The position numbers and the translations under genes were made by a program. Under the pieces are notes generated by a model. That model was not told where the DNA came from. It saw nothing but the letters and a program-made list of their open reading frames with translations, and did not search any database. From a virus, in the UHGV virus genome UHGV-0120943: DNA of 33,468 bases, one strand, 5' to 3'. Positions within the stretch are counted from its first letter, which is position 1. Every line of letters begins with the position of its first letter. Shown here piece by piece: positions 29,687 to 30,561 of this stretch.

Positions 29687-30111
29687 CAATGAGTGATTCA
29701 ATAAGCGGTGCTGAGGACATTATGCTCGGCCTGGGTGATTTCATTTTTGCTATATCAACAATAGCGTACAACAAACTGCAACGTAGTGACGCCTGGCGCT
29801 GGGCTCAGCAAACACGATTCGGGAAAAACGACGCATTGCAGATAACCGGACGACCGAACCCCACAATCACGATCGATGGGAAAATAAACGCGTTATTCCT
29901 TGATGGGTGCGGCATTGGCTTGTTAACAGATTTGCGGGCACTGGGGAACTCGGGAGAACCCCAGCAACTGGTGCTGGGGACCGGGGAGGTGAAAGGGTAC
30001 TGGGTTATCAGGGAGTTAACAGAAACGCAAAACAGTTTTCTGAAAGGAGGAACCCCAAAATCGCAGGACTTTTCACTCACGCTCGAATATTACGGAGCTT
30101 CGCTGGATTGA
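29683..30111 (+). CDS. Tail protein U (P2 gpU-like)
   Basis: 142-aa ORF, ATGA-coupled to the tape-measure gene. Confidence 0.8.
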   Translation: MTMSDSISGAEDIMLGLGDFIFAISTIAYNKLQRSDAWRWAQQTRFGKNDALQITGRPNPTITIDGKINALFLDGCGIGLLTDLRALGNSGEPQQLVLGTGEVKGYWVIRELTETQNSFLKGGTPKSQDFSLTLEYYGASLD

Positions 30112-30332
30112 ACTTCTTTCGGTTTTTTATCACCGAGAGCGGACCACAGCAACAGAATGATCCACATCAAAAATATCCATCCGAATAATATATTCAGAAT
30201 AACGACCATTGCGCAGCTTTTATGTCCCCTTATTAGAGCAATTACTAACGGTATTACGTATAAAATGATGGATATTAACGGGTTCGCCATTAACCATATA
30301 TACAGAGCGATAACCCACGCAAATAATTCCAT
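30090..30332 (-). CDS. Small hydrophobic membrane protein encoded antisense within the tail operon (moron candidate)
   Basis: About 80 aa from ATG 30330-30332 with GAGG Shine-Dalgarno; roughly three hydrophobic helices; AT-rich. Lies in the otherwise unexplained 237-bp U-X gap, convergent with gpU. Confidence 0.5.
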   Translation of the reverse strand: MELFAWVIALYIWLMANPLISIILYVIPLVIALIRGHKSCAMVVILNILFGWIFLMWIILLLWSALGDKKPKEVQSSEAP

Positions 30333-30348
30333 TTGAGGCCTCATAATC

Positions 30349-30561
30349 ATGATTACATATACGACGCGGGACGGGGACCGTCTCGATCAAATCTGCCTCG
30401 CGGTCTACGGGAGAGCGTCAAAAACGACAGAGACTGTTTTATATCAGGTTTCGAATTACGGCGTAACTGATATGTATACCGTGTTTCGTGCTGGAGAAAA
30501 AATTGTTTTACCAGATATTGAACCAGAACCGGTTAAAAAAGAAACGCAATTATGGGATTGA
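30349..30561 (+). CDS. Tail protein X (P2 gpX-like)
   Basis: 70 aa; TRDGDRLDQICLAVYGR ... VLPDIEPEP parallels P2 gpX. Confidence 0.8.
   Translation: MITYTTRDGDRLDQICLAVYGRASKTTETVLYQVSNYGVTDMYTVFRAGEKIVLPDIEPEPVKKETQLWD

Follow-up and report, generated by a model that had tools for sequence, protein, structure and literature searches.

Phage T4 is virulent and carries imm beside genes 42 and 43, which serve replication and nucleotide metabolism; the protein acts in lytic growth. A review (PMC11436027) and the note in the T4 GenBank record both ascribe to T4 imm a block of DNA injection, and refer to an altered membrane as a result of which superinfecting phage DNA stays in the periplasm. Among temperate phages, the closest functional analogue of the gene described here is HK97 gp15. 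According to PMC3594210, gp15 is a moron in the tail operon and encodes a small, YebO-related inner-membrane protein that is expressed by the prophage; its block of genome injection, a form of superinfection exclusion, depends on the tail of the incoming phage. P22 SieA and similar proteins are also prophage-expressed inner-membrane proteins, which stop DNA entry after adsorption, as stated in PMC10883804 and PMC3594210.

Here, we analysed a window of 33,468 nucleotides (UHGV virus genome UHGV-0120943) that holds a prophage whose head is of the lambdoid type and whose contractile tail is P2-like. A minus-strand gene at 30090..30332 encodes 80 amino acids followed by a TAA stop (MELFAWVIALYIWLMANPLISIILYVIPLVIALIRGHKSCAMVVILNILFGWIFLMWIILLLWSALGDKKPKEVQSSEAP) and lies between tail genes U and X. 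Its assignment as an imm-like gene was based on PF14373, PHROG 1039, homology to T4 Imm and the dN/dS ratio. The product is homologous to T4 Imm over almost the full length (80 vs 83 residues), and both proteins pass PF14373. Their hydropathy profiles are superimposable, with two hydrophobic blocks, a short basic loop and a short charged C-terminal tail. Unlike T4 imm, the window gene belongs to a temperate prophage, lies antisense within a tail operon and varies in presence among close relatives. The likeness to HK97 gp15 is functional and positional only, as the window gene sits antisense between U and X of a contractile tail; gp15/YebO appears to be an unrelated sequence family, judged indirectly by a Pfam scan (E ≤ 0.01) that returned PF14373 alone. 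As regards P22 SieA, PF14373 is the only Pfam match of the window protein at that threshold. SieA is larger than the window protein and has a different genomic position.

Genomic context of the U–X gap

The right half of the window is a P2-type contractile-tail module with genes for the baseplate, sheath, tube, chaperone, tape measure, U, X and D. The gpU gene (29683..30111, plus strand; PF06995, E = 1.2e-32) forms the left flank of the gap. The right flank is gpX (30349..30561, plus strand; PF05489, E = 5.9e-15), which is divergent from the imm-like gene, and the next gene, gpD (30565..31608), was recognised by a weak match. An earlier note on this DNA had singled out an unexplained 237-bp gap between U and X in a tight operon. 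The gap (30112..30348) is exactly 237 bp, and it is anomalous because U overlaps the tape-measure gene and a mere 3 nt separate X from D. A scan of genome contigs with gpU yielded a single locus. The imm-like frame is the only Imm-type ORF in the whole window.

The convergent overlap with the 3′ end of gpU, also proposed in the earlier note, amounts to 22 bp (30090..30111). Within it, the gpU codons for YYGASLD and the stop are antisense to the last seven codons and the stop of the imm-like gene. A comparable overlap of 19–22 bp occurs in the 81% allele of E. coli and the 71% allele of Salmonella. The end segment of gpU is kept even in relatives that lack the imm-like gene.

Family membership and protein properties

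The protein matches PF14373 (Imm_superinfect) with 42.5 bits against a gathering cut-off of 27.9 (E = 5.8e-11), covering profile positions 1–41 of 42, and PHROG 1039 ‘immunity to superinfection’ with E = 3.2e-14. Alleles P0006 and P0012 likewise pass PF14373. In a BLASTP comparison with T4 Imm (AAD42582, 83 residues), 65 of the 80 residues aligned with 34% identity and 62% positives (E = 5e-13). Eight residues, Tyr25, Pro28, Ala32, Arg35, Gly51, Trp52, Trp57 and Trp63, are invariant or near-invariant in a 72-sequence family alignment (Y..P...A..R ... GW....W.....W), and all are present in the window protein. By these profile and pairwise matches, the protein is a member of the phage T4 Imm family. 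The homology search thus points to the superinfection-exclusion factor that the earlier note had offered as one option. The other option, a small toxin, was not borne out: there was no match to a toxin or holin family, and the phage holin is encoded elsewhere (8577..8960). NCBIfam and the PADLOC defence library gave no match to the protein.

The family is very large and counts 2925 cluster representatives in a 50%-identity library (E ≤ 0.001). It owes its name to T4 Imm only, and many of its members may do something else. In the searchable literature, we found no experimental work on an exclusion function of this Imm subfamily.

The prediction of a strongly hydrophobic protein was confirmed by a GRAVY of 1.27 and two long hydrophobic blocks (residues 3–34 and 40–66). 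These blocks are joined by an R-G-H-K loop, and a short charged tail follows at the C-terminus. The hydrophobicity suggests a location in the cytoplasmic membrane. An AlphaFold2 model built on the 72-sequence alignment is all-helical, with helices 2–16, 18–35, 40–50 and 54–66 and a mean pLDDT of 84. The first hydrophobic block spans 32 residues and has a kink at Asn17-Pro18, so it could be either one span or a hairpin. In a structure search, the top predicted viral matches were annotated superinfection immunity proteins, at a weak E of ~ 0.01. Weak statistics of this kind are expected for a tiny helical protein.

In terms of composition, the locus had been called AT-rich. The overall GC content of the gene is indeed low (0.387 vs 0.484 for the window), but its GC3 of 0.444 is inside the range of the neighbouring genes (0.39–0.54). 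The low GC content is largely a result of the Ile-, Leu- and Phe-rich composition of the protein.

Selection on the reading frame

Alleles of E. whittamii (92%), E. coli (81%) and Salmonella (71%) were compared with the window allele. The pS values were 0.26–0.91 and the pN values 0.03–0.18, and dN/dS was 0.05–0.10 where computable. From base composition, we estimated a probability of ~ 0.001 for a stop-free frame of 98 codons at 38% GC. That the frame is not a product of chance is settled decisively by the PF14373 score, which lies above the gathering threshold, and by the dN/dS of 0.05–0.10 with saturated synonymous sites between alleles. The minus-strand ORF is a real gene under strong purifying selection.

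The 81% (E. coli) and 71% (Salmonella) alleles hold the same antisense U–X slot in prophages. Since alleles with saturated synonymous divergence occupy the same site, the arrangement is old. The earlier note had spoken of a gene inserted between U and X; this stands in so far as the gene forms a variable cassette, but not in the sense of a recent arrival.

Start codon and translation signals

The minus-strand ORF (30090..30350) is 86 codons long from its first ATG, whereas the second ATG, at 30332, gives the 80-residue form. The earlier note had described an 80-residue protein with a good ribosome-binding site on the minus strand, and this agrees with the second ATG, as a GAGG precedes it by 6 nt. 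This motif falls within a 10-nt palindrome, TGAGGCCTCA (30334..30343), which was read directly from the sequence and places a GAGG on each strand: on the minus strand it lies 6 nt upstream of the imm ATG, and on the plus strand 10 nt upstream of that of gpX. The in-frame upstream extension consists of six codons, MIMRPQ (30333..30350, minus strand), and there is no Shine-Dalgarno sequence ahead of its ATG.

Database homologues are 79–80 residues long, and most begin with MELF or MEIF. The imm ATG together with (A/G)AGG is conserved over three diverged alleles, and in the 81% allele the upstream ATG falls into another frame. These three observations identify the 80-residue form, and not the 86-residue one, as the conserved start, and the MIMRPQ extension is probably not translated. 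The longer form (CDS of 261 bp) was used in the one RefSeq (PGAP) annotation inspected, that of prophage L001.

Occurrence and existing annotation

Of 5426 complete E. coli genomes, 18 have identical DNA (261 of 261 nucleotides) at the same U–X position, among them strains E24377A, SE11 and STEC434. In RefSeq, 17 of these genomes list the identical gene as ‘superinfection immunity protein’, and the remaining one, strain E62, lists it as ‘hypothetical protein’. In the record inspected, the accession is WP_000605931.1 and the neighbours are ‘phage tail protein’ and ‘tail protein X’; its 86-residue start differs from the conserved 80-residue start. The window gene belongs to an already known family, and its identical form is already annotated. 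An assembly collection has the identical 80-residue protein in more than 2000 of its indexed blocks, and in all ten places read the protein lay between U and X. The rest of the prophage in the window is mosaic and only ~ 94% identical to its best E. coli matches.

The tail cluster itself is present in ~ 490 complete E. coli genomes, of which 18 have the imm-like gene. This is a minority state, and it indicates that the gene is dispensable. A tblastn search of a phage collection with the protein gave no match, presumably because the hydrophobic sequence was masked by the low-complexity filter, and a DNA search of the same collection at a distant setting gave none either. Both searches being empty, the collection holds no deposited phage genome with the imm allele at detectable DNA similarity. 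Four related phage records have a 173-bp filler in its place.

Variation at the U–X junction

The cassette between U and X (30112..30348, 237 bp) is swapped en bloc for the unrelated 173-bp filler in most relatives. The filler occupies the gap in 435 of the ~ 490 E. coli genomes with the tail cluster. The two states alternate between near-identical U and X genes, and their alignment breaks off at two points, precisely at the stop codon of gpU and ~ 10 nt ahead of the start of gpX. The earlier note had named comparison with related prophages as a check, and the gene is indeed present in some of them and absent from others.

We asked whether the filler might be a decayed imm-like gene, and this was ruled out, as the similarity was at chance level and there was no HMM signal. 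The filler encodes a 44-residue antisense ORF with a good Shine-Dalgarno sequence. It shares 63% identity with the first 43 residues of a 166-residue antisense ORF that fills the gap in L052, a more distant viral contig with 1268 bp between U and X. On account of this match, the filler is the truncated remnant of a different cargo gene, one for a membrane protein.

The gap was surveyed in 69 IMG/VR contigs with U upstream of X. The junction was empty and tight (−20 to +11 nt) in 57 of them, and a gap of 169–173 nt with the truncated 44-residue ORF was present in eight. The imm-like gene accounted for two contigs, with gaps of 237 or 245 nt. Two antisense ORFs each were found in the single contigs with a 593-nt gap (L053) and a 1268-nt gap (L052). 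All ORFs in these larger gaps are antisense to the tail genes. Sequence reading indicated that both ORFs of L052 start with an N-terminal hydrophobic segment, and that a 66-residue ORF of L053 starts with a signal-peptide-like stretch. None of the ORFs in the L052 and L053 gaps had a match above threshold in Pfam or PHROG.

Taken by its gap contents, the U–X junction of this lineage is a hot spot for the exchange of antisense genes that are unrelated to each other; several appear to encode envelope proteins. Presence and absence at a junction that is tight elsewhere supports the classification of the imm-like gene as a moron in the sense of Juhala and Hendrix. This had been suggested in the earlier note, and it agrees with the filler in close relatives and with the lack of a U–X gap in most distant ones.

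No direct repeats of note, which could mark an insertion, flank the cassette. Compared with the imm-bearing E. coli prophage L001, the window has 0–7 mismatches per 100 bp over ~ 29100–30600 and none across 30100–30300, whereas the divergence is 10–30% farther out. From ~ 30600 on, the window is nearly identical to GF131, a prophage that lacks the imm-like gene. This mosaic pattern fits movement of the cassette by homologous recombination in the flanking tail genes.

Tail-linked relatives

We examined the eight nearest Imm subfamilies (36–47% identity), and in seven of them the gene is housed in the distal part of a tail module of the same type. The gene is antisense between the tape-measure gene and X in L023, L028 and L029/30, just after gpD and convergent in L024 and L025/26, and after X on the same strand in L027. 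The exception (L031) lies next to icd and dinI, with no recognisable tail module. Nevertheless, an Imm ORF was found within 2.5 kb of gpX in only 2 of 80 viral contigs that carry gpX. By their positions, these proteins form an Imm clade associated with the tail module, and a minority of such phages carries it.

Expression and function

Consensus and relaxed promoter scans and an intrinsic terminator scan of the minus strand returned no convincing sigma-70-like promoter or terminator. As the imm-like gene is divergent from gpX, any promoter of its own must lie antisense inside gpX. There, a candidate extended −10 element, TGaTATAAA (30438..30446, minus strand), lies ~ 105 nt upstream of the imm ATG and is invariant in all close imm loci. 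We rejected it as a cargo-specific promoter, since it is also present in cargo-less relatives (L055/56/58) and absent from distant imm loci.

The reading that we favour, and hold to be probable although far from assured, is that the gene is a moron in the U–X hot spot, whose antisense frame encodes an 80-residue inner-membrane protein of the T4 Imm family that blocks the entry of phage DNA. Judged by homology, a block of incoming phage DNA at the inner membrane is the most likely function. The protein would be made from its own, probably weak, promoter antisense inside gpX and independently of the late tail operon; such expression would most likely place it in the lysogen. It would insert into the cytoplasmic membrane through the two long hydrophobic segments joined by the short basic R-G-H-K loop. 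There, like T4 Imm, it would keep the incoming phage DNA from crossing the inner membrane, so that the DNA would stay in the periplasm. The cassette itself would pass from one related prophage to another through homologous recombination between the conserved tail genes on either side. That the gene lies antisense speaks for an expression uncoupled from the late operon. Moreover, the imm-like gene is intact in two prophages with a fragmented tape-measure gene, which fits a benefit in the prophage state.

The same Imm-family protein could instead act in the lytic cycle and shield the infected or induced cell from secondary particles, including its own progeny. T4 Imm is the one member of the family that has been characterised; it acts in cells undergoing lytic infection, and PMC6832632 also credits it with a part in resistance both to lysis from without and to ‘secondary traumatization’. 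The scans, moreover, found no promoter of the lysogeny type. Nevertheless, we regard a lytic role as improbable: the gene is antisense and convergent to the strongly transcribed late tail operon, so its orientation would oppose late expression and is typical of genes independent of such an operon, and its survival beside broken tape-measure genes is consistent with an advantage that the prophage confers on its host. It is also rather unlikely that the product is a small membrane protein unrelated to exclusion (a toxin, a holin-like protein or a host-fitness or stress factor) and that the Imm name is misleading for this clade. Such a role would suit a huge and mostly uncharacterised family, the resemblance of T4 Imm to a holin stated in PMC6832632, and the close subfamily member that adjoins icd and dinI outside a recognisable tail module. 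However, Pfam, NCBIfam and PADLOC returned no holin or toxin family, the lysis cassette with its holin-like gene (8577..8960) is far off, and neither an adjacent antitoxin-like partner nor an RNA family was found at the site. The nearest relatives are persistently tail-linked, which points to a role related to phage entry.

We consider it highly improbable that there is no functional protein and that the ORF is a chance or decaying one in a gap that serves as an antisense RNA or as a spacer regulating gpX or gpD. The empty promoter and terminator scans would be compatible with it, and decay does occur at this site, given the filler as a truncated remnant of another gene. Against it stand the low dN/dS at saturated synonymous sites, the PF14373 score above threshold, and three diverged alleles that share the start codon and the Shine-Dalgarno sequence. 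An Rfam search at the U–X site also returned no RNA family.

Returning to the block of DNA entry by an Imm-family moron, the positions of its relatives allow a further, speculative step, which we put forward as doubtful. The tail-embedded Imm clade may co-evolve with the linked injection machinery and specifically exclude phages that use the same contractile-tail entry route, including its own relatives. If so, the tail linkage would be selected, escape mutants would be expected in tape-measure or tail-tip genes, and this simple prophage system would open the mechanism of T4 Imm to genetic analysis.

Implications

For annotation, the U–X gap is now accounted for: it holds a genuine member of a known superinfection-exclusion family, and the corrected start gives 80 instead of 86 residues. 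What is new is incremental: the start codon, the hot spot for antisense cargo, the origin of the 173-bp filler, and the association of an Imm clade with the distal tail. The hot spot belongs to a widespread prophage lineage of Escherichia and Salmonella, and its cargo, where it can be judged, looks membrane-bound or secreted. The nearest Imm subfamilies recur in the distal tail module. If the protein excludes phages, it would alter the phage susceptibility of the E. coli that carry it, which would be relevant to phage therapy and typing, and it would offer a tractable temperate-phage model for an Imm-type block of DNA entry.

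Surroundings and other occupants of the U-X slot

The segment spanning gpU, imm and gpX in the window carries 0–7 mismatches per 100 bp compared with the imm-bearing E. coli prophages, and from about 30600 onward the window is nearly identical to the imm-less prophage of E. coli GF131. Apparent recombination breakpoints lie at about 29100 and about 30600. The U-X slot also holds other cargo. The 173-bp filler found there in 435 complete E. coli genomes (4113–4285 in L002, and relatives) encodes a 44-aa antisense ORF. A 166-aa ORF in L052, a more distant viral contig, has an N-terminal membrane anchor of which this 44-aa ORF is a truncated copy (63% identity). 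Other antisense ORFs, none with an assigned family, occupy the same slot in L052 (1229–2491) and in a second viral contig, L053 (1896–2517).

A type I-E CRISPR spacer, GAAATTTTCACATGGATTGTAGCCCTGTATAT, located in an array of E. coli ECCHD184 (L022, 401–432), matches at 32 of 32 positions codons 2–12 of an imm allele with 81% identity, carried by a related E. coli prophage (L004, 4004–4035). The PAM position of this target is occupied by the ATG start codon of imm, and the window's own allele differs from the spacer by 9 mismatches. The spacer-matching segment of imm has 95–100% matches in 37 complete E. coli genomes; the eight listed among these matches all lie in annotated CRISPR arrays.

Other accessory genes of the prophage

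The left end of the prophage encodes a candidate two-gene anti-phage system (212–2154, plus strand). One component is a 394-aa AAA_15/AAA_21 ATPase (PADLOC PDC-M25A, E 3e-157), and the partner is a 253-aa protein (PADLOC PDC-M25B, E 5e-96). An M78 peptidase (IrrE/ImmA-like) gene lies at 3200–3688 on the minus strand, also matched by the PADLOC capP model (E 2e-25); we suspect that it belongs to the repressor-control module of the prophage.

More accessory genes stand 3′ of gpD, namely those for a 139-aa lipoprotein (31775–32194, plus strand; PHROG 890, E 2e-52) and for a Bro-N domain protein (32239–32994, minus strand). Directly upstream of the latter is a match to sRNA-Xcc1 (33031–33116, minus strand; Rfam RF02221, 69.3 bits against a gathering score of 53). 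In the imm-bearing E. coli prophages compared (L001, L004–L007 and L032–L041), gpD is followed by a gene with a prophage tail fibre N-terminal domain (PF08400) in place of this arrangement.

imm in distant relatives and in apparently decaying prophages

Four distant relatives (L023, L028, L029 and L030) share the order tape measure, antisense imm, X and D, and tblastn (E ≤ 1e-3) found no gpU homologue between their tape-measure gene and imm. In two E. coli assemblies, GCA_020556355.1 (L037) and GCA_020556385.1 (L038), the tape-measure gene is split into several short ORFs. Since the adjoining imm is intact in both, there are hints that imm is kept in decaying prophages.
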